Shown one piece after another: positions 846 to 62,148 of a stretch of 64,000 bases of DNA; the stretch's first letter is position 1, and each line of letters begins with the position of its first letter. Made by a program: the position numbers and the translations under genes. Source of the DNA: Candidatus Poribacteria bacterium (lineage in GTDB: Bacteria; Poribacteria; WGA-4E; WGA-3G); NCBI GenBank assembly GCA_965207855.1, contig OZ242310.1:3444202-3508201 (forward strand), in the 5' to 3' direction. A model generated the notes under the pieces. That model was not told where the DNA came from. It was given only the letters and a program-made list of their open reading frames with translations, and searched no databases.

Positions 846-1114
846 TACTTTCTACCTTCACATTCAATTCAGAAAGTCGTGTGCGGTGAAAGTCGCACGC
901 ACGGTTTGGAGGGGCTGATAACTCGTGAGGGTTATTGGCTACCCTACAATAGAAGTTAGAAGTAAAGCAACTACCTTCAATTTTACAGGATTAACGAATA
1001 AATTTCAAACAGAAAACGAACAACAAACGACTTAGCCTCTGAAACAAGGGTAAGATTAAACTAGCTTGTATAAATAGCGTCCAAAAGTATAAATACGTCC
1101 AAAAGGAGTATCAT

Positions 1115-9669: not shown

Positions 9670-9744
9670 GCGGGAGTAGCTCAGTGGTAGAGCTCCACCT
9701 TGCCAAGGTGGAAGTCGCGAGTTCAAATCTCGTCTCCCGCCCCA
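9670..9744 (+). tRNA. tRNA-Gly (anticodon GCC)
   Basis: The acceptor stem GCGGGAG/CTCCCGC pairs. The anticodon loop is TTGCCAA, a GTTCAAAT T-loop is present, and CCA is encoded. Confidence 0.85.
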
Positions 9745-9750
9745 TCTTAA

Positions 9751-9825
9751 GGTGGCGTAGCCAAGTGGTAAGGCCAGAGTCTGCAAAACTCTTATTCGTC
9801 GGTTCGATTCCGACCGCCACCTCCA
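9751..9825 (+). tRNA. tRNA-Cys (anticodon GCA)
   Basis: The acceptor stem GGTGGCG/CGCCACC pairs. The anticodon loop is CTGCAAA, the T-loop is GGTTCGATTCC, and CCA is encoded. Confidence 0.85.
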
Positions 9826-9844
9826 TTATTATCTTTCCAAGAAC

Positions 9845-9918
9845 GGGCGGTTAGCTCAGGTGGCTAGAGCGTTTGCTTGACATGCAAGAGGTCACAGGTT
9901 CAAGTCCTGTACCGCCCA
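9845..9918 (+). tRNA. tRNA-Val (anticodon GAC)
   Basis: The acceptor stem GGGCGGT/ACCGCCC pairs. The anticodon loop is CTTGACATG, as in bacterial tRNA-Val(GAC). The T-loop is GGTTCAAGTCC. Confidence 0.8.
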
Positions 9919-21382: not shown

Positions 21383-22105
21383 ATGTTAGTGTCTGTAATC
21401 ATTCCTGCGTATAATGAGGAGCGAACCATTGGGCAGGTCTTGGAGGCACTACGCGCACTACCCCTCGAAAAACAGATTATCGTCGTCAATGATGGTTCCA
21501 CCGATGGAACATACGACGCACTTGAGCGGCTCCGTGAGGTTCATCAGTTAACCGTTGTACACTGCCAAGAAAACGGCGGCAAAGGATGCGCCATCCGTAC
21601 CGGGCTCCCTCATGTCCAAGGTGAAGCCGTGGTTATTCAGGATGCCGACATGGAGTTATCCCCAATGGATCTCTCTGAACTCTTGAAACCACTGGAACGG
21701 GAGGACATTCAAGTCGTTTACGGGTCAAGGTTTCTCAACGGACGCGGGAACGCCAGTCTTCATAATTTTATCGCTAACCGGGTGCTTGCAACTTATACAA
21801 ATCTTCTTTACGGATGTCGGATTACCGATGAATCTACGGGGTATAAAGCCTTTTCAGCGGAATTGATAACACGTTTAAATTTAACATGTGAGGGGTTTGA
21901 ATTCTGTCCAGAGGTTACAGCGAAAATTTTGCGCGCAGGCTATGGCATCCACGAGGTACCGGTCTCCTATTCCCCGCGGACGAAAAAGGAAGGCAAAAAA
22001 CTCCGATTCTGGTCAGACGGCATCTTTGCTGCCTGGACCCTCTTAAAATACCGATTTATTTCAAAAACCAAACTTTTCAAAAATACTGCGCAAGATAAAT
22101 TGTGA
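21383..22105 (+). CDS. Family-2 glycosyltransferase (polyprenyl-phosphate sugar synthase / DPM1-like)
   Basis: VSVIIPAYNEE...VNDGSTDGT...QDADME is the GT2 DxD architecture. Confidence 0.75.
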   Translation: MLVSVIIPAYNEERTIGQVLEALRALPLEKQIIVVNDGSTDGTYDALERLREVHQLTVVHCQENGGKGCAIRTGLPHVQGEAVVIQDADMELSPMDLSELLKPLEREDIQVVYGSRFLNGRGNASLHNFIANRVLATYTNLLYGCRITDESTGYKAFSAELITRLNLTCEGFEFCPEVTAKILRAGYGIHEVPVSYSPRTKKEGKKLRFWSDGIFAAWTLLKYRFISKTKLFKNTAQDKL

Positions 22106-22133
22106 TAATCTATATTTGGAGGTTAAATCGTTA

Positions 22134-23747
22134 ATGATGCTTAAAAAGGTGGTTTATGCCGCGCTGATCCTCTTATTCGTAGGTACGATCTCTACCGTTG
22201 TGTTTGGACACAGCGACCTCCCCACGCTTTTGGAGGATGTCAATAAAGATAGTGTGGTGAACATCCAAGACCTGGTGCTCGTCGCTACTGCTTTCGGACA
22301 ACCCAGAGACCGCAATGCGGAATACGACCCTGATGTCAATCGCGACGGAATCGTTAATGTACTCGATCTTGTTCGCGTCAGTAACGGTTTTGGACAGACT
22401 GCATCGGATGAAAATTCAGCGTATCACGATATTCAGGAATATGTCTTTGATAAGAGTTGTGCGAACAGTGTTTGTCATGCTGCGCCTGCCAACGCGGGTA
22501 ATTTAAATCTGACCTATGGTCTCTCTTATGAAGATTTGATCGTCGGTGTGCCACAGAATCCTGCTGCGGCTGCCGCTGGCATGAAACTCGTAGATCCCGG
22601 CAATCCAGAGAACAGTTTCTTGTTGACGAAACTGATGGGACCCACAGCACCGGAACAAGGCGCACGGATGCCCTTTGCGGGCGGCGTGCTCCACGATGGA
22701 AAAATAGAAGCAATTCGTACCTGGATCGAAGCTGGCGCACCACAGACGGGTAAAGTGATCGGGATGGGGGACCTCGCAGTCTTACGAGACCCTGAAGAAA
22801 TCTTTGAACCACCTGCACCACCACCACCCGGTGAAGGCTATCAACTTCATTTGCCGCCCTTCAGAATCGAACCCGGCACTGAACGGGAAGTATTTTATGC
22901 AACGCAAATCAAAGATGAAAATGGAGAGCCAATAGCGGGTGACATCTTCATAAATAGATATGAGATTTTCTATCCCGTGGGCAGCCATCACTTTATCTTA
23001 TATCGGATGACCGATGCAGCAATCTCAGACGGAATCCTTGAGATTGGCTTAGTTCCCGGAATCGGTGTTGATCCAACAGATCCTTTCCGAGAGTTAGACC
23101 CAGCCGACCCGCAGGCACTTGGAGACGGAGGGATTCATCGCTTCTTCGTTGCCGGATCACAAAGCGACGATCTTTCGCTTGCATTTCCAGAGGGCGTCGC
23201 CCTCCGACTTGCCGGTGATACGCTCTTTGACATGAATTCTCACTTCATTAATTTATTAGGGACCGAAACCCTAATTGGTGAGGCTTATATCAATATCTAC
23301 ACACTTCCACCTGAAGAAGTCACGCATGAGGTAATTGAGATTTTCGTTTCCAACACAGAGATTAACGTCCCGCCCGGGCTGACCCGTGTTAGCAAAATGA
23401 ATTGGTATATTGAAGATGAAATGGAACTGCAAGGCATAGATCCAGGGGCAACATTGAACGTCATGCTGCTCACATCTCACATGCATAGACACGGCGAATT
23501 GTTTGAAATCTTTCAACAGTCAACAGGGGGCTTGTTGCACCGGAGCGTCGCTTATGATGACCCACCGATAACCTTTTATACCCCACCGCTGGCACTTGAT
23601 GCAACCGATGGGCTCAGCTTTCAGTGTACGCATAGCAATTATGATCGGGATGTACCTCTTGAATTCGGTTTTACATCCGAAGACGAGATGTGCCTTATGG
23701 TCGGCTATTATTATGTGCCAACGAAAAGTGTTGCGGACAGTAATTAA
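22134..23747 (+). CDS. Secreted multi-domain protein: dockerin-like repeats + PSCyt1-like domain (degenerate C-x4-CH) + C-terminal PHM/DBH-like putative copper-monooxygenase domain
   Basis: Signal peptide. Two D-x-N-x-D-G/S-x-V-N-x-x-D-L repeats. The segment DKSCANSVCH...MPF..WIEAGAP fits the PSCyt1 pattern. Motifs SHHFILY, NSHFINL, SHMHRHGE and SEDEMCLMVGYYYVP sit at PHM-like spacing. GGAGG RBS; the track ORF begins at 22116. Confidence 0.5.
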   Translation: MMLKKVVYAALILLFVGTISTVVFGHSDLPTLLEDVNKDSVVNIQDLVLVATAFGQPRDRNAEYDPDVNRDGIVNVLDLVRVSNGFGQTASDENSAYHDIQEYVFDKSCANSVCHAAPANAGNLNLTYGLSYEDLIVGVPQNPAAAAAGMKLVDPGNPENSFLLTKLMGPTAPEQGARMPFAGGVLHDGKIEAIRTWIEAGAPQTGKVIGMGDLAVLRDPEEIFEPPAPPPPGEGYQLHLPPFRIEPGTEREVFYATQIKDENGEPIAGDIFINRYEIFYPVGSHHFILYRMTDAAISDGILEIGLVPGIGVDPTDPFRELDPADPQALGDGGIHRFFVAGSQSDDLSLAFPEGVALRLAGDTLFDMNSHFINLLGTETLIGEAYINIYTLPPEEVTHEVIEIFVSNTEINVPPGLTRVSKMNWYIEDEMELQGIDPGATLNVMLLTSHMHRHGELFEIFQQSTGGLLHRSVAYDDPPITFYTPPLALDATDGLSFQCTHSNYDRDVPLEFGFTSEDEMCLMVGYYYVPTKSVADSN

Positions 23748-23812
23748 ATAAATCATGCGAAGCGCGGAATCAATTGGATTACCAAACAAATTTGGAGGTT
23801 GAATTGTTAATT

Positions 23813-25429
23813 ATGATAAGAAAAACAGTCTATTTCACACTCATCACCTTGCTGATGGGCAGCTTCTCTTTTTTCGCACTCGGACACAGCGATCTCCCGA
23901 CGCTGTTAGAGGATGTCAATAAAGACGGTGTGGTAAACATCCAAGACTTAGTGCTTGTTGCTGCTTCCTTTGGACAACTCAGGGATCGTAATGCGACGCA
24001 GGACCCTGATGTCAATCGCGACGGGATCGTTAATGTGCTTGACCTCGTTCGGGTCAGTAACAGTTTTGGACAAACCGTGCCAAGTGAAAATTCAGCATAT
24101 CACGATATTCAGGAATATGTCTTTGATAAGAGTTGTGCCAACAGTGTCTGTCATGCTGCGCCTGCGAATGCGGGTAGTTTAAATCTTACCTACGGTCTCT
24201 CTTATGAAGATTTGGTTGGACAGGTTCCTCTGAACCCAGCCGCCGCGGCTGCCGGTATGAAGCTGGTTGATCCGGGCAACCCGGAGAACAGTTTCCTTTT
24301 GGCGAAATTGATGGGACCCGCAGCACCGGAACTGGGCGCGCGGATGCCTTTTGGCGGCGGTATACTCCATACTGGCAAAATAGAAGCTGTCCGCACATGG
24401 ATTGAGGCTGGCGCACCGCAGACCGGCAAAATAGCGGGTATCGGAGACCTTGGGGTCCTACGCGATCCTGACGAAGTGTTTGAACCGCCCGCGCCACCCG
24501 CCCTCGGTGAAGGCTATCAACTCCGTCTGCCACCCTTCAAGATTGAACCCGGTACGGAACGCGAAATCTACTACGCAACCCAAATCACTGATGAAAATGG
24601 AAACCCTATAGCGGGCGACATCTTTATTAATAGAGTTGAAATCTTCTATCCAGCGGGTAGCCATCACTTCATCGTGTATCGGTTCACTGAAGAGGGCTTA
24701 GCAAACGGGGTCCCAGAGAGAGGAATTACACCCGGAATCGCAGTTGATCCAGCGACGGATAGATTCCGTGAACTGGACCCAGACGATCCGCAAGTGCTTG
24801 GCAATTTTGGTGTTGATAGACTTTTTGTTGTCGGCACGCAGACGGATGATACGCTTTTTGAATTTCCTGAAGGTGTGGGATTACGGATGCCCGGAGACAC
24901 GGTTTACGACCTCAATTCCCACTACATCAATTTGCTTGGGGACGAAACATTGATTGGCGAAACCTACGTCAATATCTACACGATTCCCGAAGAAGAAGTT
25001 CAGTACGAGGCGGTTGAAATTTTCGTTTCTAACAGATCGATTAACGTACCACCCAAAACAACGCGCGTTTCCAAAATGACGTGGTACGTTGAAGATGAAC
25101 TCGAACGCCGAGGACACAACCCGGCAGCGGAATTGAGCGTCTTCTTACTCACATCTCACATGCACAGACACGGTGAGTTGTTTGAAATCAATCAGAGATC
25201 AACCGGGGATTTATTGCACCGAAGCATCGCTTACGACAATGCTCCGATTACTCTGTTTGAACCGATTCTCCGCTTAGGTCCAGACGATGGACTTAGATTC
25301 GAGTGTACCCACAACAACTACGACACGAATGAACCGCTCATATTCGGACTTACATCTGAAGATGAGATGTGCATTATCTTCGGTTATTATTATATCCCGA
25401 CTGAAAGTGCCGGAGAGATCATTAAATAG
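23813..25429 (+). CDS. Tandem paralogue of 22134..23747 (same domain architecture)
   Basis: About 75% identical across all the same motifs (AGSHHFIVYR, NSHYINLLG, TSHMHRHGELFEI, SEDEMCIIFGYYYIPT). The RBS context is also conserved. Confidence 0.5.
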   Translation: MIRKTVYFTLITLLMGSFSFFALGHSDLPTLLEDVNKDGVVNIQDLVLVAASFGQLRDRNATQDPDVNRDGIVNVLDLVRVSNSFGQTVPSENSAYHDIQEYVFDKSCANSVCHAAPANAGSLNLTYGLSYEDLVGQVPLNPAAAAAGMKLVDPGNPENSFLLAKLMGPAAPELGARMPFGGGILHTGKIEAVRTWIEAGAPQTGKIAGIGDLGVLRDPDEVFEPPAPPALGEGYQLRLPPFKIEPGTEREIYYATQITDENGNPIAGDIFINRVEIFYPAGSHHFIVYRFTEEGLANGVPERGITPGIAVDPATDRFRELDPDDPQVLGNFGVDRLFVVGTQTDDTLFEFPEGVGLRMPGDTVYDLNSHYINLLGDETLIGETYVNIYTIPEEEVQYEAVEIFVSNRSINVPPKTTRVSKMTWYVEDELERRGHNPAAELSVFLLTSHMHRHGELFEINQRSTGDLLHRSIAYDNAPITLFEPILRLGPDDGLRFECTHNNYDTNEPLIFGLTSEDEMCIIFGYYYIPTESAGEIIK

Positions 25430-25456
25430 GACCGATTTCATAAATGTGGAGAAGCG

Positions 25457-25486
25457 CGCTTCATAGGCGCGCTTTTCTCTTATCTT
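25457..25486 (+). terminator. Rho-independent terminator AAGCGCGCTTCATAGGCGCGCTTTTCTC
   Basis: An 8-bp GC stem plus a T-run. Confidence 0.6.
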
Positions 25487-25488
25487 AG

Positions 25489-27363
25489 ATGGAAACCACT
25501 CATTCAAGAAAAAATAACTTCATAGATGCCCTCACACATCGGATTTTGGTGTGTGATGGTGCTATCGGAACCGAAATCCGCAAGCAGGTACCAGCACATC
25601 TGCAATGTGTTGATGCCTGTAATATCTCTACTGAATACGCCGAGAAAGTCTCAATGGTTCATCGCGCATACGCTGCTGCCGGTGCCGATGTTATTCAAAC
25701 CAATACCTATCAGGCAAACAGCGAAGCGTTAGCTGTTCACGGCTTGGCTGAGCAGGTTGAAGAAATTAACAGAAGCGGTGTGAGCCTCGCACGTGCTGCT
25801 GTGCCGAAGACTTGCTATGTAGCCGGTTCCGTTGGACCGATCTCTTTCCAAACCTTAGATACCACACTGCCCGCAACGAAGGCAATCAGGCGCATCTTCA
25901 AACAGCAAATGGATGCCCTTGTTGATGAAGGCGTTGATCTTCTCGTCCTTGAGACTTTCGTTTCTCCCAGACAAGCAGAAATCGCCGCGAAGCAAGCCCT
26001 CACTTACGATGTCCCTGTCGTCGTTGAAATCAGTGGCGTTTCAGGCGGCACAGTAGGTGCCGGGGTTGATGTCCGGGTCTTTGCACAAGAGCTCGAACAA
26101 CTCGGCGCACACGCGGTCGGGGTCAATTGCCGCGGTCCACACGACCTTGTCGAGGCGATGGAACTCCTTGCACCTGTCATCAAGGTTCCTATCGCTGTAC
26201 AACCCAACGCTGGCAATCCGAGAGTCGAACAGGGCGAAGTGGCACTCTCTTATACAGTCGAGGCAGAAGTTTTCAGCGATTACGTTGGAAAATTGATTGA
26301 ACTTGGCGCGAACATGATTGGCGGTTGCTGCGGCACGACCCCCGCTTATGTGGCGAAAATCCGTCAGGCTGTTAGAGAACGTGAACCTGTTGAACGGCAA
26401 CAACGGATCTTCGTCCTTCCAAAGATTCGCGCAACCTCGAAAGTCCGGACGGATAATCCTGTGCAACAGGTGTTTGAAACGCGAGAGCAGATCATAAGTG
26501 TTGAAATGCGCGCCAATACATTTCCACAGTTTCGAGCGATGTTGCGTGAGGCGAAAAAACTCGCTGCCATCGGTGTCGATCTGTTTGATGTAACCGACAA
26601 TTCCGGTGCTGCTGTGAATATTGGAGCCGTCGGTACAGCATACCGACTTCAGCAGACAACACAAATTCCGACGCTCATCCATTGGACAACCCGCTCGCGG
26701 AATCTCATTAGTATGCAATCGCATTTACTCGAAGCAGAGGCGTTGGGTATTCGTGGCATTGTTGCGCTCTCTGGCGACCATCCAAAAGTAGGTCCCTATG
26801 AAGCGGCGAGCCTCGTCCCGGATGTCCGAGGTGCCGTTCAATTGATGAAACTCATTGCACGTCTGAATCAAGGTGAACTCGCTGACGGTTCATCTATTGG
26901 CGATCCGTGTGGATTCTATTACGGCGGCGGTTTTACGGTTGCTGAGAACCTTCAACCCCACGTCAAACATCTCACAAATAAGGTGAAGCAAGGCGCAAAA
27001 TTTGCCTATACGCAACCGGTCTGGACTTATGAAGATATCGTTCGGACCCAGCAAGCGACGGAACATCTTGGTATAAAATTGCTTTACGGCATCCTACCGC
27101 TCACCAGTTTCCGCAGTGCCTCCTATCTACGCGACAATTTGGGACTCTATATCCCTCAGTTTATCGTTGACAAATTTCGAGACCTTGAGGATACCGCCGC
27201 ACACGAACTCGGTATCCGGTTGTGTTTGGAGTTAATTCGCGACATCCGTAATCAAAATGAATGTAAAATTGATGGTATCTATCTCATCCCACCTGCTCTC
27301 ATGAATTGGAAAAACAGAGTCAGGATCATCTCAGAGATCGTTAAAACCTACCGTTTTTTTTAA
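25489..27363 (+). CDS. Bifunctional homocysteine S-methyltransferase / 5,10-methylenetetrahydrofolate reductase (YitJ-like fusion)
   Basis: The N-terminal half (ILVCDGAIGTE..GCCGTTP) is a Hcy-binding methyltransferase domain. The C-terminal half is an MTHFR/MetF domain (LSGDHPKVG). Confidence 0.8.
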   Translation: METTHSRKNNFIDALTHRILVCDGAIGTEIRKQVPAHLQCVDACNISTEYAEKVSMVHRAYAAAGADVIQTNTYQANSEALAVHGLAEQVEEINRSGVSLARAAVPKTCYVAGSVGPISFQTLDTTLPATKAIRRIFKQQMDALVDEGVDLLVLETFVSPRQAEIAAKQALTYDVPVVVEISGVSGGTVGAGVDVRVFAQELEQLGAHAVGVNCRGPHDLVEAMELLAPVIKVPIAVQPNAGNPRVEQGEVALSYTVEAEVFSDYVGKLIELGANMIGGCCGTTPAYVAKIRQAVREREPVERQQRIFVLPKIRATSKVRTDNPVQQVFETREQIISVEMRANTFPQFRAMLREAKKLAAIGVDLFDVTDNSGAAVNIGAVGTAYRLQQTTQIPTLIHWTTRSRNLISMQSHLLEAEALGIRGIVALSGDHPKVGPYEAASLVPDVRGAVQLMKLIARLNQGELADGSSIGDPCGFYYGGGFTVAENLQPHVKHLTNKVKQGAKFAYTQPVWTYEDIVRTQQATEHLGIKLLYGILPLTSFRSASYLRDNLGLYIPQFIVDKFRDLEDTAAHELGIRLCLELIRDIRNQNECKIDGIYLIPPALMNWKNRVRIISEIVKTYRFF

Positions 27364-27509: not shown

Positions 27510-29438
27510 ATGCAAACTCGTGAAACTTCCATCTCATCGGCACGCGTTACAGCGAGGTCACTGATCTTAGGGATTTTATTCATCCCTGTTAATGTTTATT
27601 GGATGACGCTTGTTGAAGTGAAGTATTACTCCCTTGACGGTTCATGCCTCCCGCTTTTTATCCAACCGGTCTTCATTATGTTCGTCTGTGTTATCGCGAA
27701 CACACTCTTGAAACGTTTCGCGCCGCGGCAGATGCTCCAACAGGGAGAGTTGCTCACTGTCTACATCATGGTGGCGATCTCGTGTACGTTTGCCGGACAC
27801 GACACGATGCAGAATATGTTCGGGAGTATTGGGCATGCGTTCCAATTCGCAACGGACGAGAATGAGTGGCAGACGCTCTTTTTTCGGTATCTACCCGCTT
27901 GGCTTACCATCTCGGATACCCAAAGCCTCCAAGGGTTTTACGAGGGGGAAGCCACCTTCTACACGAAGCATAACTTCTCAATTTGGCTAAAACCCTTGGC
28001 GTTCTGGGGACTCTTTTTCCTGATTATGATGTTCATGATGCTTTGCATCAACACAATCGTCCGAAAGCGATGGGCAGAGCAAGAAAAACTCGCGTATCCG
28101 ATCATACAACTTCCGCTACGACTCTCCGAAGATGGCGGTATCAGCCTCCTCAAGAATCGGATGATGTGGATAGGCTTCAGCATCGCGTTCGCTATCGGGG
28201 TCATTAACGGGGTCAACTATCTTTTTCCGCAGTTTCCAGAGATCCCTTATATCAAGCGGACGGCTGTTTTCCAAAATATTTTCACTGACCGTCCATGGAA
28301 CGTCATTCGTGGGACCCGGATCTCTGTTTATCCTTTCGCAGTGGGTTTGGCGTTTTTCTTACCGTTGGACCTCTCGTTCTCGTGTTGGTTCTTCTTTGTT
28401 GTACGCTTAGCGGAATTCGTCATTGGCGCAGCACTCGGTACCCGCTATTTTCCTGCCCTCAACGAGCAGGCGTATGGTGCTTGGATCGCCCTTTTCCTGC
28501 TTGCCGTTTGGGTCACACGGCGACATCTGGTAGAAGTGATGAAAAAAGTATTTGGGTTTGAATCGCGTCTTGATGATTCCAACGAACCGATGCCGTATCG
28601 TGCCGCCTTTTTGGGAATTCTTGGATCACTTGTTGCCCTTGGGATCTTTTCCTCTATCGCAGGAATGGCGTTGTGGGTCGCCGGTCTTTTCTTTGGTGTC
28701 TATTTTCTGCTATCGTTTGCAATTACTCGTGTTCGGGCGGAACTCGGCACACCGCATGAAATTTACTACGTCAATCCGCACGACATGCTCGCGACAGTCG
28801 GTGGAACGCGGCAGTTTGACACGAGCAGTCTCACCATTATGTCGCTTTTCTATTGGTTCAATCGGGGCTACCGGAATCACCCAATGCCGAATCAGATTGA
28901 GGCGTTCAAACTCGCCGAATCAACGGGGATGGGCAACAGACGTTTGTGGGTGGCGATGTTGATAGCAATTATCGTCGGGATTTTGGTGACTTTTTGGGCG
29001 AATCTGGACATCACCTTCCGGAACGGTGCTGATGCGAAAGCCGGTGGATTCAAAGACTGGGTTGGCAGAGAATCGTTCAGTCGGCTGCAGCGATGGCTGC
29101 ATAACCCAACGGAACCGAACATGGTTGGTATGGGCTTTATGGGTATCGGCGCGCTCTTGACGTTTGTGATGATGTACATGCGGATGCATTTCTTGTGGTG
29201 GCCCTTCCATCCAGCGGGTTACGCGCTTGCCATCAGTTTTGCGATGGATTATTTCTGGTTCGCTTTCTTCGTGGCGTGGTTTTTGAAGTTAATGATTCTT
29301 CGGCACGGTGGCTTGCGGCTCCATCGTCAGGTCGCACCGCTCTTTTTGGGGTTAATATTAGGCGACTACGTCATCGGCAGCACCTGGGCAATCATCGGAC
29401 CGGCATCCGGCTTACGAACCTATAAAATCTTTATTTGA
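27510..29438 (+). CDS. Large polytopic membrane protein, unrecognised family (paralogue 1 of 3 in the window)
   Basis: 642 aa with 12 or more hydrophobic segments. Shares motifs HAFQFAT(D/P)ENEW, YPI(I/V)QLPL, PLDLSFSCWFF, R(V/I)RAE(L/I)G(T/P)P and LGLILGDY with 57331..59256 and 60059..61972. Confidence 0.6.
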   Translation: MQTRETSISSARVTARSLILGILFIPVNVYWMTLVEVKYYSLDGSCLPLFIQPVFIMFVCVIANTLLKRFAPRQMLQQGELLTVYIMVAISCTFAGHDTMQNMFGSIGHAFQFATDENEWQTLFFRYLPAWLTISDTQSLQGFYEGEATFYTKHNFSIWLKPLAFWGLFFLIMMFMMLCINTIVRKRWAEQEKLAYPIIQLPLRLSEDGGISLLKNRMMWIGFSIAFAIGVINGVNYLFPQFPEIPYIKRTAVFQNIFTDRPWNVIRGTRISVYPFAVGLAFFLPLDLSFSCWFFFVVRLAEFVIGAALGTRYFPALNEQAYGAWIALFLLAVWVTRRHLVEVMKKVFGFESRLDDSNEPMPYRAAFLGILGSLVALGIFSSIAGMALWVAGLFFGVYFLLSFAITRVRAELGTPHEIYYVNPHDMLATVGGTRQFDTSSLTIMSLFYWFNRGYRNHPMPNQIEAFKLAESTGMGNRRLWVAMLIAIIVGILVTFWANLDITFRNGADAKAGGFKDWVGRESFSRLQRWLHNPTEPNMVGMGFMGIGALLTFVMMYMRMHFLWWPFHPAGYALAISFAMDYFWFAFFVAWFLKLMILRHGGLRLHRQVAPLFLGLILGDYVIGSTWAIIGPASGLRTYKIFI

Positions 29439-29480
29439 TGAAGTCATAATGCTCCTTCTTGAAACGGCACACAAGAGGCA

Positions 29481-30518
29481 ATGGAAAACGTGAACTTACC
29501 TGTTGGGAAACTCAAACACGATTTTTTAAAAGAACTTCTACCTACACACGATGGAAGCACAAGTCTGGTTGTCGGTCCACAACTCGGTGAAGATGCTGCT
29601 GTCATTGCCTTAGGCGACAACTACCTCGTTGCTACCAGTGATCCGATCACCTTTGCGACTGAAGATATTGGATGGTATGTCGTATGCGTCAATAGCAATG
29701 ACATTGCAGCGATGGGTGCCGTGCCGAAATGGTTGTTGGTAACGCTGTTATTACCCGAAGACGCGACGACACCCACGATGGTTCGAGACATCATGACGCA
29801 ACTCACGCAGGCATGTGCAGAATTTGACATCCTACTCTGTGGGGGACATACCGAAGTTACACCGGCGGTAACGCAGCCCGTTGTCGTGGGACAAATGATG
29901 GGGATTGCCAATAAAAATAGCTTGTTCACTTCAGCGAATGCCTGCGTAGGAGACGCATTAATCCTCACAAAGGGAATCGGTATTGAAGCAACTGCAATCA
30001 TTGCCCGTGAGCGTGAAGCGCAGTTGCGTGAAAAGTACGACGATCGCTTCTTGAAACAGGCGAGACACTATCTCACGCATCCCGGAATCTCTGTACTCAA
30101 GGACGCACAAACTGCAATCGCCACAGGGGGTGTCCACGCTATGCACGATGTCACAGAAGGGGGTGTCGCAACTGCGGTCTATGAATTGGCGACCGCAGCC
30201 GAGTTGGGAGTGGTTGTCTATTCGGATAAACTTTTAGGTTCATCAAGTCTGTATGGAAATATAACACGAACATTGTGTGATATGTTTCGGCTCAACCCGC
30301 TTGGTGTTATCTCTTCTGGTTCGATGTTAATCGCATCGGAGCCCGAAAAAGGCGAAGTAATTTGCCAAGCCCTCGGTAAGGAGGGGATCAGTGCCGACAT
30401 CATCGGAGCGTTTTTGCCATCTGAGTATGGGTTGTGGTTGGAAGAGGCCACCGGTACACGACAACCGCTACCTGTTTTTGAGACAGATGAAATCGCCAAA
30501 CTCTTTAAGCAGCAATAG
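29481..30518 (+). CDS. AIR-synthase-related (PurM/HypE-like fold) protein
   Basis: GKL..FLKELL...GEDAAVI..GD.YLVATSDPITF..DIG...VCVNSNDIAAMGA..KWLL is the HypE/PurM N-domain pattern. Confidence 0.55.
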   Translation: MENVNLPVGKLKHDFLKELLPTHDGSTSLVVGPQLGEDAAVIALGDNYLVATSDPITFATEDIGWYVVCVNSNDIAAMGAVPKWLLVTLLLPEDATTPTMVRDIMTQLTQACAEFDILLCGGHTEVTPAVTQPVVVGQMMGIANKNSLFTSANACVGDALILTKGIGIEATAIIAREREAQLREKYDDRFLKQARHYLTHPGISVLKDAQTAIATGGVHAMHDVTEGGVATAVYELATAAELGVVVYSDKLLGSSSLYGNITRTLCDMFRLNPLGVISSGSMLIASEPEKGEVICQALGKEGISADIIGAFLPSEYGLWLEEATGTRQPLPVFETDEIAKLFKQQ

Positions 30519-30534
30519 CCATTGAATTTTACGA

Positions 30535-31203
30535 ATGAAAACCCGACTACAAAACTATCCCCTAACAAGCACCATCATTAAGTTGAAAACCGGTCGGGTC
30601 CAACTCACACTTATAGAAGACCCCGATTGGTTTCTCGAACAACTCAGTCGGGAAGATAAGGACGGCAAACTCTATCTCCCCTATTGGACCTACCTCTGGG
30701 AATCCTCGATCGGTCTCGCTCGCCATGTAGAGAAAATAGGAGCACAACTAAAGGGCGGACATATTTTGGAGATTGGATGCGGGTTTGGATTGACAGGAAT
30801 TGTCGCCTGTCAGATGGGTGCACGTGTGATCTTCACAGACGCAGAATGGGAAGCACTCCATTTCGCAGCACACAACGCAGAGCAGAACGGCGTTGAAGAA
30901 AATGCGGATTTCGTTCAGATGGATTGGAATACGCCCTGTTTCAACTGCAAATTTCCGTATATCCTCGCCGCCGATGTCGTTTACGAGGAACACCACTGGA
31001 CTCCGATTTTATCTCTCCTTCAGAACTATCTCTCTCCTGACGGTATCGCTCTCTTTTCCGAACCGAATCGAAACAACGCTGCCGGATTTTTCAAACGGAT
31101 CGCAAATAACGGTTTCTGCTATCAAAAATCTACCCTTCCTGTTACATTAGATAGACAAACTTCCCAAGTTTCTATCTATACTGTGCGACGCGTAAACGCG
31201 TGA
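30535..31203 (+). CDS. Class-I SAM-dependent methyltransferase (METTL21/Nnt1-like)
   Basis: Motif I ILEIGCGFGLTGI, and an acidic post-I residue in VIFTDAEWEAL. Confidence 0.6.
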   Translation: MKTRLQNYPLTSTIIKLKTGRVQLTLIEDPDWFLEQLSREDKDGKLYLPYWTYLWESSIGLARHVEKIGAQLKGGHILEIGCGFGLTGIVACQMGARVIFTDAEWEALHFAAHNAEQNGVEENADFVQMDWNTPCFNCKFPYILAADVVYEEHHWTPILSLLQNYLSPDGIALFSEPNRNNAAGFFKRIANNGFCYQKSTLPVTLDRQTSQVSIYTVRRVNA

Positions 31204-49907: not shown

Positions 49908-51101
49908 TTAAAAGTTATTCTTTAGTAAAGTCAATGCTTGTTTAGGATGTGCGGCGAAATATCTCATTGTTTTAGCGATAGCTTCATATCCTGCTAAGCG
50001 TAATATAGAAAGTGCGGTGTTCCGCAAAGCTGCCATGACTGCCGGGATTGCGCCACAGCGGACTTGAGAAGCATCTTCACCGAGAAGCATGTCTCGGATC
50101 CAATGGGACTTATTTTCTATCGCCCAATGTCCGCGCTTGAGGCGTAAAAGGTCAGCTGCGGTGGCACGGTTAGGTTCAAGGCTCGTGATGCCATAGTGTG
50201 TCTGGCAGGCGACTTCTCCGGTTCGTAGGTTCTTGCGGGTGTATGTGCACTCGAAGACCTGCCGGACCCCTGGCCAGTCTATGTATTCATTAAGTGCGGT
50301 GCTTGCCGTCAAACGTCGTGTTTCAAAGCGTCCATGGGCTTGGTCAACGGTTTTGCGAGTGTCAAGGGTTTCTCCCCAGTCTTGGTGTTCTGCCTTGAGG
50401 ATGTTATAGGCGGTCTGAAAGGTTGTTTCGGTAGGTCGCCGAAACAACCTTTCAATATCTTCATAGACCTGTTTATGGTTGGCTTTGACGGGTAAAACGT
50501 AATCCCCGCCTGATTCTAAAACCGATGCGCAAAAACGGCGTTGCGTCAATAGAGCATCTGCTGTCACGACCTTGCCAGAAACATCAAACGCCTTGAGGAT
50601 TTCACGCGAGACGGGCACTTCATGCGTCTTCTCTGACATCGCTTTTTGCGTGAGAGTAATACCGAGTTCATGAGAAACGACTGACATCAAATGCGTGAAC
50701 TTCGCACCTTGTTTCTTGCTACCCCGTAAGGTCTTGCCATCTATAGCGACAGCCGTCAGACCGCCTTGACTGCCCCAACCCAAGTCCTCAAGCGCACTTG
50801 AAGCCCACTGCGTCAGCACGGTTTCTAAGTCATCAATGTCTAATCTACGAAAAAGATTGTAGAATGTTGCGGCACATGGTGTTTTCCTATGTGTGAACCC
50901 TAAGGCTTTTCTGAGTGCCTTGTAGGTGCGTCCGTATTCAGCAATAGCTGCATAGCTGCGATATCCAGACATCATGGCAATGATAGCGAGTGCGAGGATT
51001 GCCTTTAGTGGATGTCTTTTGCCTTTTTCCTTGCGTGGGTCTGCGACGGATGCTAACATATCAAGTAAGTGGCGAGAGGGTTTTCTCGTCATGAGCTTCA
51101 C
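49908..51101 (-). CDS. ISAs1-family (IS4-related, H-repeat-associated) transposase
   Basis: 397 aa. The N-terminal DDE_Tnp_1_assoc-like region (KRHPLKAILALAIIAMMSGYRSYAAIAEYG) and the C-terminal GHWAIENKSHWIRD are ISAs1 hallmarks. Confidence 0.75.
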   Translation of the reverse strand: MKLMTRKPSRHLLDMLASVADPRKEKGKRHPLKAILALAIIAMMSGYRSYAAIAEYGRTYKALRKALGFTHRKTPCAATFYNLFRRLDIDDLETVLTQWASSALEDLGWGSQGGLTAVAIDGKTLRGSKKQGAKFTHLMSVVSHELGITLTQKAMSEKTHEVPVSREILKAFDVSGKVVTADALLTQRRFCASVLESGGDYVLPVKANHKQVYEDIERLFRRPTETTFQTAYNILKAEHQDWGETLDTRKTVDQAHGRFETRRLTASTALNEYIDWPGVRQVFECTYTRKNLRTGEVACQTHYGITSLEPNRATAADLLRLKRGHWAIENKSHWIRDMLLGEDASQVRCGAIPAVMAALRNTALSILRLAGYEAIAKTMRYFAAHPKQALTLLKNNF

Positions 51102-51350: not shown

Positions 51351-53444
51351 TCAAGAGCCTATAAAAGGTTTCAAATCCCAGAGGAGGGTTGTGCACTCAA
51401 AACTGCCAGTCGCCAGAAGTGTACCGTCCGGTGAAAAAGCGAGGGACTGAATATCTGTTGGATGTCCCCAGAGCGTCGCAATATTTTCACCACTTGTCAC
51501 AGACCATAACCGAATTGCCATCTTTTCCATGCCTTTTTCCCACCAAGTGCCAGATGCCAAATACTTACCACATGGCGAAAACGCCAAGGCATAAGGTTTC
51601 TGTCTCTGTGGCTGCGAGATTGTAAAAAGCGTTGTTAGAGTTTCAGCATTCCATAGACGAAGTTCTCCGAACAGTCCACCCGCAATCAAATTACCACACG
51701 GCGAAAATGCTATCTCCATCAGTGTCCGAGGTTCACCTAATGGCAATGTTGCAATCTCTTCGCCGGATTCAACATTCCACACCCGGGCGATTTTATCAGC
51801 TGATCCGCTCACCAGTCGTTTGCCATCTGGCGAGAAGCACATTGACCAGATGTGCTCGGTGTGTCCTGTGAGAGGTTTCAACTGCTCTTTATGTATGAAA
51901 TTCCATAGATAGATTGTACCTTCTCTACTTCCAACTGCAAGCCGGTCGCCTGTTGGTGCAAATGCAATCTTCCATAGCAATCGGACCGGATCGGTTTCAG
52001 TGAATTCTGCAATCGGTGCGTCGGCTTTCTCGGCATCCCAAACTTTGACGTTGTTGTTTTGGCTATGGGCAGACAGCATGTTTCCAGAAGGCAAAACAGT
52101 AAAAGAGGTAATGCGTGCACCCTGCAATAATGTTTCCCGAACCTCTTTACTTTCAACATCCCATAGCACAATACCGGTCCGTTGCCCTTTTATCGCCAAC
52201 GTCTTTCCATCTGGCAAAAACAGGACCGGATCTGGGAAACAATCGGGTTCACGAAGTGTTGAAAATGTGTGTATGTTGCCAATTTGAGTTTTTTTCTTTG
52301 GTGTAGTGCTCGTGTGGAACGCTGCGAGAGCCGGCTGTGGGAATTCTCTGAACCATACGGCATCAATGCTCCTCGGATGTAGTTCCGGGATCTCTATTTT
52401 TTCATTACGTTCCATATTCCAGACCTCGATGGGGTCTTGCCCATCTACAATCGCGAATAACTCACGTTCTGTTGTGTAAAATGGTGTTATCTGAGATGTT
52501 TGAAAGTCAGTATAAGCGACCTTTTGCACACCCTTTGCCACATCCCACACGCGTAGACTTTGATCTCTACTACTTGATGCAAGGAAATTGCTGCAAGGCG
52601 AAAAGGTAATAGTGTCTACCCAGTCGCTATGTGCTTTGAAGTGAGCAATGCATTTCGCCTTTTCTATGTCCCATACTGAGATGCATCGGTCAACGCGATC
52701 GGCACCGCCGAGCGGTTCATCAGGGGCTGCGCCCGCCAGCAGGCGACTGTCCGGAGAGAAGGCAAATCTACTACTTGCGAATTTGACAATTGGGACACCG
52801 GTTGCTGGGTACCAGATGTGAGTTTGCATGCCTTCTGCATCAGGGTTAACAAGTCGATCATCGCGGACTGAATAGACTTTGGGGTTATCTCCAATAGCGG
52901 CCATGTACTGGCCGTTAGGCGAAAATTCGAGTTGGGAAATATCAGCCGATTTAACTTCACGGTCACCTCGATCCATTTCTGCGACGCAGACACCGTGATG
53001 CACGTCTAACACCTCAACGATGCCGTGCTGATTCGCGGTGGCAACCCACTTGTGATCTGGAAAAAAGTTAATGCGCCAATGAATATTATGTTCCACCTTC
53101 GGCTTCATCTGCGCGAGACACTCACCACTCTGAATATCCACTACCTTAATAACACCGTCATAGTTGGCGATAGCAATCCATTTGCTGTCTTGCGAAAAAT
53201 CGATGGCGGAGATCATCCCACGTTCTGTTTCCCATAACGCTATGGGAGTACTTGATGACATTTCATACCACCAGAGCCCCATACCGGTTGCAACGGCGAA
53301 ATACCTGCCATTTGGGGACGGTTTCACGGCACGAAAATTGCCTTTTCCCAATCGGGCGATTGCACCTTCTGGTAGTGCCCATCTGGTTCCTTTGGAATCA
53401 CCCTGCACAACATGAAAGGGTGCCGGTCTTCGATTTTGTTTCAT
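51351..53444 (-). CDS. WD40-repeat (beta-propeller) protein, ~14 repeats (start re-called at MKQNRRP with AAGGAG RBS)
   Basis: Repeated [LF]xGHxxxIxSxAFSPDGxxLASGSxDxTxxLWD units. Confidence 0.75.
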   Translation of the reverse strand: MKQNRRPAPFHVVQGDSKGTRWALPEGAIARLGKGNFRAVKPSPNGRYFAVATGMGLWWYEMSSSTPIALWETERGMISAIDFSQDSKWIAIANYDGVIKVVDIQSGECLAQMKPKVEHNIHWRINFFPDHKWVATANQHGIVEVLDVHHGVCVAEMDRGDREVKSADISQLEFSPNGQYMAAIGDNPKVYSVRDDRLVNPDAEGMQTHIWYPATGVPIVKFASSRFAFSPDSRLLAGAAPDEPLGGADRVDRCISVWDIEKAKCIAHFKAHSDWVDTITFSPCSNFLASSSRDQSLRVWDVAKGVQKVAYTDFQTSQITPFYTTERELFAIVDGQDPIEVWNMERNEKIEIPELHPRSIDAVWFREFPQPALAAFHTSTTPKKKTQIGNIHTFSTLREPDCFPDPVLFLPDGKTLAIKGQRTGIVLWDVESKEVRETLLQGARITSFTVLPSGNMLSAHSQNNNVKVWDAEKADAPIAEFTETDPVRLLWKIAFAPTGDRLAVGSREGTIYLWNFIHKEQLKPLTGHTEHIWSMCFSPDGKRLVSGSADKIARVWNVESGEEIATLPLGEPRTLMEIAFSPCGNLIAGGLFGELRLWNAETLTTLFTISQPQRQKPYALAFSPCGKYLASGTWWEKGMEKMAIRLWSVTSGENIATLWGHPTDIQSLAFSPDGTLLATGSFECTTLLWDLKPFIGS

Positions 53445-53799
53445 ATCCACTCCTTGATGATAGTTCTGGGTGTATCCTAACATAGCTGGAGTGAGGGAGC
53501 AACCCCTTATCCCCTGATCCCCTTATCAGCCCGGAATCCTCCCGGGATGTATTTTCATGTATTCTTGAGAGGTCACGAGTACAACTCAGGCCTACACGCA
53601 CGAAGTGCTTTATGGATGTCCACCAAAACTCAATTAAACACATATCCCAAATTTACGTCAAAGTATAAAGATAAAAAACACATCGCGCGGCAAGACACAC
53701 TCGCCGGAAAGGAGCCCCACCATTCGCAGTCTACTCGGCCTCAAGAAGTATATCATTCGATATAGATACGCCATCGTAATCAGTTTCATTCTTGTCATT

Positions 53800-57330: not shown

Positions 57331-59256
57331 TCAATGCCAGACAATATACGTCGGCATTTCCAATACCAACCCAATCAGGCTCCACACACATCCAAGCGTA
57401 TAATCCCCCAAGATGAGTCCTAAAAAGAACGGTACCGCCTGCCGATAGAGCTTCACGCCCCCAATCTTCAGTACAATTGCCTTTGCCAACCAACTTAGGA
57501 AGATTGGAAACCACAGACCGCTCATCCCCGTCCCACTCACCAGCACATAACCACCGGGATGCAGGGGCCACCAGAGAAATCGAATCTTCATAATCATCAG
57601 GAATATCGTAAATAGGAAACTGCTGCCGATAACACTCAGTTCCGGCACACTCGTCTCCCGTGGACTAACAAGCCACGTTTGTAGGCGATTAAACGTTTCC
57701 CATCCCATGTAAACAATCCAACCACGTGCTTTGCTCCCTGCCCCCATATCGTAAAGGACGTGTAGATACGCCCAAAACGTTATCAGTATCCCGAACACAA
57801 TCGCCAAGATCATCCCAATAAGGAGTTGACGATACCCGATACGACTCCGTTCTGCCAACCTGAACGCCTCCAACTCACTCGGTGTCGGATGTGCGCGGAA
57901 ACACCGAACAAATGGATAGAGAAACGTGAGTCCTGTTAGATTCGCTGCACCGAGACGACGCGTGCCTAATGCAAGCACCATCGTCCGTCCAGGATCGACA
58001 AAGATGAGCTGATGCAACGGCGGTCCGATCTCTGCGCGGATACGGGTAATACCGATAACTAACGGGAAGTAGAACACGAAGAACAGCCCTATCGCCCAAA
58101 ACGTCATCCCCATCTGATGGCAAAAGAAAAAAAGAAACAGCATCCCAACGGTAAAAAGACCCGCCGCAGTCCGATAGCGCATCGGTTCACCGGAGTCGTC
58201 GGGTGCAGCTTCACCACGGCGTTGTGCGATGCCGAAAACTTTCCGCAGAATGCGCCCGTAGTGCCGCCGACCCATCCACAGCGGAATGCAGCCAAACGCA
58301 ATCCATGCCCCTGTCTGCTGCTCAAGGTGATAGATGTTTCGTGCCCCAAACGCGTCTGTTACAATCAGTTGGATACGACTGAAAAGCCAGAAAAACCAAC
58401 ACGAAAACGAGAGATCCAGCGGTGTGAAGAACATCAAACCGATACTAAACGGATAGAAGGATATCCGAATCGGTCCCATCGCGCTCCACGGTTTTGAACT
58501 GAATTGCCCGATTGTTTTGCCTTTGATGGGGAGTGCAGGTATATCAGGAAACAGGTAGTTCAATCCATTCAACAATTCCGCGCTCCCTGCGAGTGCGAAG
58601 CCTAGCCACATCCACGGCGAAGTAAAGAAGCGTTTCGGGTTGCTTGTCAGAGCCAAGGGGAGTTGAACGATTGGATAGTTTAGGCGTTCGTTTTCGGTCC
58701 ACTGTTTTCGGAGAAAAACGGTTACCGCCAGCAGCGTCAACCAGAGCGCGATGACAAAACTCGACCACGCCAGCACGGGGGGTATCCACGCATCTAAGTG
58801 AGAAGGGGTATAGAGAGTAGAATCACCGTTATAGAACCCATCCAAAACGCGCGGGCTTTTAATAGCGATCCACGTCGGGATGTGGTGTCCAAAAAGCGGA
58901 ATCCATTCGTTTTCTGGCGTTGCAAATTGGAAGGCGTGTGCGAGGACAGGGATAAGATACCCCATCATCGTGTGTCCGCTAATCGTCGTTAGCATCACCA
59001 CCATGACATAGATGGTCTGCAAATCCGCCTGCGACATCGCCAGACGCGGCACGAACCGTTGGAACAGTAGATTGATAAGTACAAAGACGAGGAGGGTGAA
59101 AACGGCGTTGAAGAATAGAGACGCGATTGTGAGCTGCGTAGAGTGCCACACCTCTGTTCCCATCAGACACCAGTAACTATTGAAAGCAACAAGCACCAAT
59201 CCAATCAGCAGAATATGCGGTTTGACGAGGTTCTGCTTACTATTACTGTTAGTCAT
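57331..59256 (-). CDS. Large polytopic membrane protein, unrecognised family (paralogue 2)
   Basis: 641 aa. About 40-45% identical to 27510..29438, and about 85-90% identical to 60059..61972. Confidence 0.6.
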   Translation of the reverse strand: MTNSNSKQNLVKPHILLIGLVLVAFNSYWCLMGTEVWHSTQLTIASLFFNAVFTLLVFVLINLLFQRFVPRLAMSQADLQTIYVMVVMLTTISGHTMMGYLIPVLAHAFQFATPENEWIPLFGHHIPTWIAIKSPRVLDGFYNGDSTLYTPSHLDAWIPPVLAWSSFVIALWLTLLAVTVFLRKQWTENERLNYPIVQLPLALTSNPKRFFTSPWMWLGFALAGSAELLNGLNYLFPDIPALPIKGKTIGQFSSKPWSAMGPIRISFYPFSIGLMFFTPLDLSFSCWFFWLFSRIQLIVTDAFGARNIYHLEQQTGAWIAFGCIPLWMGRRHYGRILRKVFGIAQRRGEAAPDDSGEPMRYRTAAGLFTVGMLFLFFFCHQMGMTFWAIGLFFVFYFPLVIGITRIRAEIGPPLHQLIFVDPGRTMVLALGTRRLGAANLTGLTFLYPFVRCFRAHPTPSELEAFRLAERSRIGYRQLLIGMILAIVFGILITFWAYLHVLYDMGAGSKARGWIVYMGWETFNRLQTWLVSPRETSVPELSVIGSSFLFTIFLMIMKIRFLWWPLHPGGYVLVSGTGMSGLWFPIFLSWLAKAIVLKIGGVKLYRQAVPFFLGLILGDYTLGCVWSLIGLVLEMPTYIVWH

Positions 59257-59983
59257 TCCCGCACCTACTGATGTGCTGTAACGCTTTCTTCAACACCGCT
59301 TCGTTGCTGTATTTTTTTAGAGTATCTTGTGCGGTAGAATCGTTGAATTCCCGAATCTCTTCGCATAACAACGGTAGTGCCCGCACAACGTTATCTACGA
59401 TTGTGATGCTCGCCTGTTGTGCCGTCCGTGACATTGGGTTTAAATCGACGGTTACAACTGCTTTACCCATCTTTCGGAGTGCTTCGCATCGGTCCCCGTC
59501 CTCAAGTGGCACAAAAACGACATCGGCTTTAAAGATTCCCTTTGGATGCACGAACTTACGATTGGAATCGATATAGGAGAGTTGTGCCTCGGTTGTCGGC
59601 ATCAGGATGTCGCGGGCACCGTGCTTGAGAAGATACTCCCGGATTTTCTGTTCCCGTCCGGTTTCCGTGTGGAAAATGTTCACCTCTAACGGTGCGTTTA
59701 GAGCCTGTCCCAATTCGATGAGTCCCTCCGGTGCCAACGCTGCCACATTCCCGTTGACGGAGATGACGGGGTGTTCTGCCAAACGCAGCATTGCTGCTGC
59801 GGCGTGGATCGCCTCAATCGCGAACGGTTGTGTCGCTTCTCCGATGAGGTAATCAAAAGCCTCTCCGCGACCGTGTGCGATAAGTCCGTGGATTGAGGTA
59901 ATCCCTTGTTCTACGCCTGCAACGATGGTATCTCTGAGCGTGAGTGAAAGGTATCGGGGATGTGTTTTCGGAACGTCGCTCAA
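59249..59983 (-). CDS. Hypothetical 244-aa protein, weakly reminiscent of the archaeal-type DUF137 / 4-phosphopantoate--beta-alanine ligase (PPS) family
   Basis: TTG start. An 8-nt overlap with the downstream membrane-protein gene implies translational coupling. The family call is from memory and weak. Confidence 0.3.
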   Translation of the reverse strand: MSDVPKTHPRYLSLTLRDTIVAGVEQGITSIHGLIAHGRGEAFDYLIGEATQPFAIEAIHAAAAMLRLAEHPVISVNGNVAALAPEGLIELGQALNAPLEVNIFHTETGREQKIREYLLKHGARDILMPTTEAQLSYIDSNRKFVHPKGIFKADVVFVPLEDGDRCEALRKMGKAVVTVDLNPMSRTAQQASITIVDNVVRALPLLCEEIREFNDSTAQDTLKKYSNEAVLKKALQHISRCGND

Positions 59984-61972: not shown

Positions 61973-62148
61973 TTCGTAGCACCTCAACACAAATTTGCGT
62001 CTATTATACAGTGTTTTGTGTCTGTTTTCAAGAGGGATATCGGACAATCTTATTTTTTTGAAACCTCTTACGAATTGCTGTATAATTTGCTTCAATTTGA
62101 CATCATAGAAAATGAGTCGCGTCTTATATCTATCTCAGATTTAGGAGA

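Follow-up and report, generated by a model that had tools for sequence, protein, structure and literature searches.

The window analysed here, a stretch of 64,000 nucleotides (nt) from a genome assembly of a Candidatus Poribacteria bacterium (contig OZ242310.1), encodes three related polytopic membrane proteins, hereafter A, B and C, which we consider to be solute transporters with the OPT/Yellow Stripe-like (YSL) fold, at a probability of roughly three in four. Judging from structural modelling, they are most likely paralogous secondary-active transporters from a very divergent bacterial branch of the OPT/YSL structural superfamily. The original prediction, made from the nucleotide sequence, had named no family for these proteins, and had offered two speculative readings, namely a glycosyltransferase of the GT-C fold and a novel modification system formed together with two neighbouring genes. 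The present analysis contributes a well-supported, model-based structural assignment to a known kind of transporter, along with the refutation of these two exotic readings, while the family itself is already in Pfam as DUF6785/DUF6784. No new kind of system is involved, and the glycosyltransferase or modification machinery that had been proposed is not supported. The assignment would provide a first functional handle on a DUF family that numbers about 7,000 sequence clusters, as transporters of the OPT/Yellow Stripe fold.

Predicted Structure and Proposed Transport Mechanism

The AlphaFold2 model of A, built from 36 sequences and no templates, is confident, with a predicted local distance difference test score (pLDDT) of 86.3 and a predicted template-modelling score (pTM) of 0.88. 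A Foldseek comparison of such a model with GT-C structures had been suggested as a check on the glycosyltransferase idea; it returned no GT-C match, and the significant fold match was to barley Yellow Stripe 1 (HvYS1) alone. In the PDB, the entries 7wst and 7wsr were the sole significant matches (E 5e-9 to 1e-8, probability 1.0, template-modelling (TM) score 0.61–0.66), and all remaining matches had E>0.06 and TM<0.2. The model matches the YS1-type fold (core plus scaffold domains), by which OPT/YSL is recognised, and in the PDB searched only HvYS1 shares this fold. The fold predicted for the family is that of OPT/YSL. The helix and secondary-structure pattern visibly repeats between the two halves of the protein, and the conserved polar motifs (D/P)ENEW, PLDLSFSCWFF, RxRAExGxPHE, HPAGY and LGLILGDY lie on or between short, broken helices.

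By analogy to HvYS1, each protein would be composed of two domains, a mobile one for transport (core) and a scaffold, both made of inverted repeats. A small organic solute would be carried inward by an elevator-type movement, probably coupled to protons, and the conserved polar motifs would serve as substrate- or proton-binding elements rather than as the active site of a glycosyltransferase. The substrates of A on the one hand and of B and C on the other are probably unlike. Compact bacterial homologues of this kind could be of use in studying the structure and mechanism of elevator-type OPT transporters, since only the plant protein HvYS1 matched the fold in the PDB searched.

Family Membership and Divergence from Known OPT Proteins

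At the sequence level, A, B and C are plain members of DUF6785/DUF6784, and nothing sets them apart. They score 578, 544 and 539 bits against PF20581 (DUF6785; cutoff 25, E 1e-161 to 1e-173), and 124, 116 and 117 bits against PF20580 (DUF6784; cutoff 26.4, E about 1e-34 to 1e-36); both models are matched over their entire length, as they also are by all 36 aligned homologues. The earlier statement that no family could be named was therefore too strong as regards cataloguing, but it was right in that the family has no assigned function. The nearest relatives of A are all from metagenome-assembled genomes of Candidatus Poribacteria (98% identity), followed by proteins of Armatimonadota at 45–53% (Chthonomonadales, Capsulimonadaceae, Abditibacteriales), and more than 1,500 homologues were found at 90% clustering. 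From these nearest relatives, the window almost certainly belongs to a sponge-associated member of Poribacteria. When the family profile was run against 1.84 billion representatives of 50% identity clusters, it matched 7,111 at E<=1e-3, 5,122 at 1e-10 and 2,443 at 1e-30, counts that give no sign of a far larger family being drawn in. Among the best 150 matches listed, all were ordinary family members, and none formed a bridge to OPT.

Several observations weigh against the assignment to OPT/YSL. Scanned one by one at E<=10, the 36 members hit 22 families, but not the OPT family PF03169; no NCBIfam family, OPT models included, matched A, B or C at E<=0.01; and searches of the PDB sequences by phmmer and with the family profile found nothing relevant, and no OPT protein. 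In the structural alignment, just 11–12% of residues are identical to HvYS1, and the fold evidence rests on predicted structures. An hhalign comparison of the N-terminal with the C-terminal half (alignment A1) was not significant (probability 0.2%, E 0.31), its alignment spanning both halves. Furthermore, a literature search on DUF6785 or DUF6784 found nothing, experimental data on DUF6785 members included, and neither peptidase nor metallophore genes are consistently adjacent in the neighbourhoods compared. A literature search on Poribacteria and OPT transporters yielded nothing of relevance either. The tie to OPT/YSL is thus structural only, resting on the model, with no sequence-level bridge. 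DUF6785 proteins differ from the OPT/YSL superfamily (TC 2.A.67; PF03169; 7wsr/7wst) in being undetected by its hidden Markov models or profiles, and in that the closest relatives retrieved for A, B and C are bacterial (Poribacteria, Armatimonadota). They also differ from HvYS1 itself in having no long counterpart of its long linker between transmembrane helices 6 and 7, a linker that was invisible in the HvYS1 map.

The Three Genes and Their Conserved Motifs

The three paralogues lie where the original prediction had placed them, with intact open reading frames (Table 1), and tblastn revealed exactly three copies in the window, with no extra copy or fragment. A and B share 40% identity across 634 amino acids (aa), which is their whole length (E 3e-173), and B and C share 88%. 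The frame of C is open as far as a TTG at 62095, with the ATG at 61972 as an alternative start; the latter is favoured because a sigma-70-like promoter site (11/12) lies ahead of it at 62031..62003, and because the C gene is called as 637 aa at a related locus, L169, which carries a B orthologue of 98% identity. An Rfam scan found no riboswitch or other element near the genes A, B or C.

Table 1. Positions and assignments of the main genes in the window.
Gene	Position	Strand	Length	Assignment and evidence
GT2	21383..22105			Start position as in the original prediction
HMT/MTHFR	25489..27363	+		Bifunctional homocysteine S-methyltransferase/methylenetetrahydrofolate reductase (YitJ-like); NF006396 509 bits (cutoff 453); immediately upstream of A
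A	27510..29438	+	642 aa	DUF6785+DUF6784; predicted OPT/YSL-fold secondary transporter
PurM-like	29481..30518	+	345 aa	PurM-superfamily (AIR-synthase-related) protein; AIRS and AIRS_C; 42 nt downstream of A
Methyltransferase	30535..31203	+	222 aa	Class-I S-adenosylmethionine-dependent, METTL21-like; Methyltransf_16 PF10294 64.8 bits (cutoff 21)
B	57331..59256	-	641 aa	DUF6785+DUF6784; predicted fold as in A
PPS	59249..59983	-		Archaeal-type 4-phosphopantoate--beta-alanine ligase (phosphopantothenate synthetase); PF02006 E 1e-67; NF041123 302.5 bits (cutoff 300); NF010324 336 bits
C	60059..61972	-	637 aa	DUF6785+DUF6784; copy of B

The sequence blocks to which the original prediction had drawn attention, HAFQFAT(D/P)ENEW, YPI(I/V)QLPL, PLDLSFSCWFF, R(V/I)RAE(L/I)G(T/P)P and LGLILGDY, are found in all three proteins, with a slight deviation in C, whose HAFQFAT(D/P)ENEW block reads HTFQFASPENEW. 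In the alignment of the 36 homologues, these motifs are mostly invariant. The (D/P)ENEW motif follows the third or fourth helix within a net-acidic stretch, and this region (residues 96–152), which is poor in K/R, may face the periplasm.

Genes around A

The neighbours that had been reported for A, an AIR-synthase-related protein, a METTL21-like methyltransferase and the GT2 gene at 21383, proved to be correctly identified. One strand carries HMT/MTHFR, then A, and then the genes for the PurM-like protein and the methyltransferase, separated by 146, 42 and 16 nt, respectively. Ahead of HMT/MTHFR, at 25448..25478, is a strong 14-bp hairpin that resembles a terminator, and none occurs inside the four-gene group. 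The PurM-like protein can be placed, from its sequence, only at the level of the superfamily (AIRS, AIRS_C), as all its equivalog scores are under the respective cutoffs: SelD 102.8 (125), HypE 97 (251.6), ThiL 91 (184) and PurM 41.7 (236) bits. Its closest PDB sequence is HypE (E 3.9e-15). HypE carries a C-terminal cysteine; the C-terminus of the PurM-like protein reads ...AKLFKQQ, with no terminal cysteine. The homologue search for this protein returned only orthologues of at least 83% identity, of which the close ones are annotated as 'AIR synthase family protein'. For the methyltransferase, the closest PDB sequence is METTL21A (E 2.4e-12).

The segment 31485..37677 (+), directly downstream of the methyltransferase gene, encodes a response regulator of the ANTAR type, a nitrite/sulfite reductase resembling NirA, an MFS transporter and a molybdopterin oxidoreductase. 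These genes are a separate assimilatory nitrate/nitrite module, and a link of A to the ANTAR/NirA genes was rejected for that reason; the module accounts for part of the conserved synteny. On the other side of the group, tandem paralogues at 22116..23747 and 23774..25429 (+), 73% identical, combine Dockerin_1 with a C-terminal domain of copper type II ascorbate-dependent monooxygenases (PHM/DBH-like). Apparently, most related Poribacteria loci have one copy of this gene, and the closest two have two.

Genes around B and C

Between C and B lies a gene that the original prediction had described as DUF137/PPS-like and as translationally coupled to the second paralogue. It was verified as PPS_PS, and at its stop it shares 8 nt with the start of B. 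PPS is a context gene, and any functional link to B would be conjectural; the PPS–B pairing occurs only at B orthologues of at least 86% identity (L086, L089, L090, L169). The order C–PPS–B is retained in L169, but C is missing upstream of PPS from a genome whose B orthologue is 86% identical. Bacteria normally use PanC and pantothenate kinase; here, an archaeal-type PPS is found in a bacterial (Poribacteria) genome, wedged between two DUF6785 paralogues. At its other end, B stops 16 nt from a convergent ABC-exporter gene in the window (57331 and 57315). At this place, L169 (12008..13472) contains two additional genes of 286 and 194 aa without Pfam hits, which indicates a recent indel.

Conservation of Gene Order

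Eighty genome loci were compared with the neighbours in the window by tblastn, the number of evaluable loci varying with the question. Where the A orthologue is at least 84% identical, HMT/MTHFR lies within 300 nt upstream in 35 of 40 evaluable Poribacteria loci; below 84%, this was seen in none of 33. The earlier suggestion that the trio of membrane protein, PurM-like protein and methyltransferase should be conserved in related genomes is borne out for close relatives in part, with both partners downstream at 15/38 loci of the first group and neither at 16/38, but it fails at the more distant loci (0/34). The methyltransferase is downstream of A in 19 of the 38 close loci, and the PurM-like gene in just part of the clade at or above 84%.

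At five Poribacteria loci with an A-type protein of 70–80% identity (L039, L042, L043, L045, L047), a DAO-family flavin adenine dinucleotide (FAD)-dependent oxidoreductase (PF01266, best E 6e-81) is encoded directly upstream, with a small gap or overlap, and the number of Poribacteria loci in this identity range with a DAO-type FAD oxidoreductase directly upstream of a DUF6785 gene is 5–8. It holds the place that the HMT/MTHFR fusion has in the clade of the window. The same-strand neighbours of distant members were pooled, which gave 58 genomic and 88 metagenomic proteins. Their Pfam content is mixed, with Laminin_G_3 (8), PhyH (7) and xylose-isomerase-like TIM barrels (6), as well as GFO/IDH/MocA, CBM9, GH127, NAGPA, asparaginase and one pantothenate kinase. 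No universal gene partner of DUF6785 was found among the loci compared. At one locus, L088 (1..11603), a pair of DUF6785 genes is interspersed with two genes of the alpha-L-fucosidase family, one GHL6/Glyco_hydro_42M gene and one gene for a 1,075-aa protein without Pfam hit, a cluster that looks like one for polysaccharide utilisation.

Candidate Substrates

The coupling ion and the substrate class are much less certain than the assignment to OPT/YSL-fold transporters, and the substrate class is a guess, because peptidase or metallophore neighbours are not consistently present. Established OPT substrates comprise oligopeptides, glutathione, and metal–nicotianamine and phytosiderophore complexes, and methyl-tetrahydrofolate and other folates have recently been found to be carried by yeast, fungal and plant OPTs (PMC12687453). 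The prokaryotic OPT permeases (clusters 4 and 5 of Gomolplitinant & Saier 2011) resemble the proteins studied here in being bacterial, predicted proton-driven importers with mixed gene contexts, which for canonical members include peptidases, a xylanase-linked subcluster and, beside one member, pantothenate kinase (PMC3061005). The latter neighbour is echoed by PPS beside B and by the pantothenate kinase beside one distant DUF6785 gene. The difference is that canonical prokaryotic permeases are recognisable as OPT by sequence, whereas A, B and C are not.

The adjacent genes give a hint of amino-acid- or vitamin-like substrates. With a folate-dependent enzyme of the methionine cycle beside A, and a ligase of the coenzyme A (CoA) pathway beside B and C, the arrangement is suggestive of the uptake of peptide-like cofactors or their precursors. 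In its full form, this idea would make DUF6785 a bacterial sister family of OPT that scavenges such compounds, A importing a folate or methyl-group carrier for the adjacent HMT/MTHFR, and B and C importing an intermediate of the pantothenate pathway (pantoate, beta-alanine or a pantothenate-like compound) for PPS. We hold this to be quite improbable as a whole, because both gene associations are phylogenetically shallow. If true, cofactor scavenging would imply vitamin traffic from host to symbiont in sponges; in any case, knowledge of the substrates would tell more about what sponge symbionts obtain from their host.

Alternative Interpretations

A carbohydrate-related substrate for other branches of the family is a live, if clearly less probable, alternative. 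In this case, an OPT-fold transporter would carry carbohydrates or glycoside-derived compounds and feed the sugar catabolism typical of Poribacteria and Armatimonadota, a reading that we regard as unlikely, yet worth keeping in mind. It is favoured by L088, with its two DUF6785 genes among alpha-L-fucosidases and a GHL6/GH42M protein, by the presence of Laminin_G_3, PhyH, xylose-isomerase-like TIM barrels, GFO/IDH/MocA, CBM9, GH127 and NAGPA among the 146 neighbours at distant loci, and by the xylo-oligosaccharide uptake that Saier proposed for one canonical OPT subcluster (PMC3061005). However, the neighbour tallies are raw counts with no background frequency, so that enrichment is unproven, and in the window the neighbours are one-carbon/methionine enzymes (A) and a CoA-pathway enzyme (B), with no glycosidases adjoining. 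Moreover, we take the neighbour families at distant loci to be generally abundant in such genomes. The fold could also be that of OPT/YSL in proteins which transport no solute, acting instead as a sensor or transceptor, a lipid scramblase or a structural membrane protein. The lack of functional data on any member in our search and the extreme sequence divergence from characterised OPTs leave a slim chance of this. On the other hand, the strong conservation of buried polar and charged motifs extends over about 7,100 clusters, and several paralogues per genome are placed in operon-like fashion beside metabolic enzymes, all of which is typical of transporters. To our knowledge, all characterised members of the OPT superfamily are transporters.

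The readings of the original prediction fared worse. That the membrane protein, a PurM-like ATP-dependent activator and a METTL21-like methyltransferase might constitute one modification or biosynthetic module, for which the membrane protein imports a substrate or exports a product, draws on the single strand, the short gaps (42 and 16 nt) with no predicted terminator between the genes, and the finding that, in 13 related genomes, the start of the PurM-like gene is no more than 200 nt away from the A orthologue, and that both partners are downstream in 15. But this linkage is limited to A orthologues at or above 84% identity, L022, L024 and L052 have the methyltransferase gene directly after A and lack a PurM-like gene between them, several genomes show insertions of 0.5–8 kb between the genes, and B and C have neither partner. 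The trio was rejected as a functional unit because its conservation is too shallow, resembling shallow synteny rather than selection for linkage; such a module appears very unlikely, and nothing supports a mechanistic tie of the PurM-like protein or the methyltransferase to the membrane protein. Finally, in a polyprenyl-phosphate-sugar glycosyltransferase of the GT-C fold, catalysis would take place at the loop with the D/E-N-E motif, and the lipid-linked donor would come from the GT2 at 21383. PglB/STT3, ArnT and PMT are likewise large polytopic membrane proteins with an acidic motif conserved early in the sequence. The conserved acidic motif within the possibly periplasmic residues 96–152, the GT2 gene 5 kb upstream and the carbohydrate-active genes that surround some family members would fit. 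Nevertheless, no structural or sequence similarity to the GT-C fold or to GT-C Pfam families (PMT, PMT_2, STT3, ArnT-like) was detected, and since the fold searches match HvYS1 and fail to match GT-C, this reading is effectively refuted and extremely improbable.

Other Features of the Window

Near the start of the window, a match to the group II catalytic intron model RF00029 was found at 872..947 (+) with 55.6 bits. It falls within the first 2 kb, and the first ~2 kb around it are low in GC (38% vs about 49% elsewhere). An IS-type DDE transposase (DDE_Tnp_1) at 49908..51101 (-) adjoins a 710-aa WD40 beta-propeller protein at 51351..53483 (-), and three tRNA genes are located at 9670..9918.

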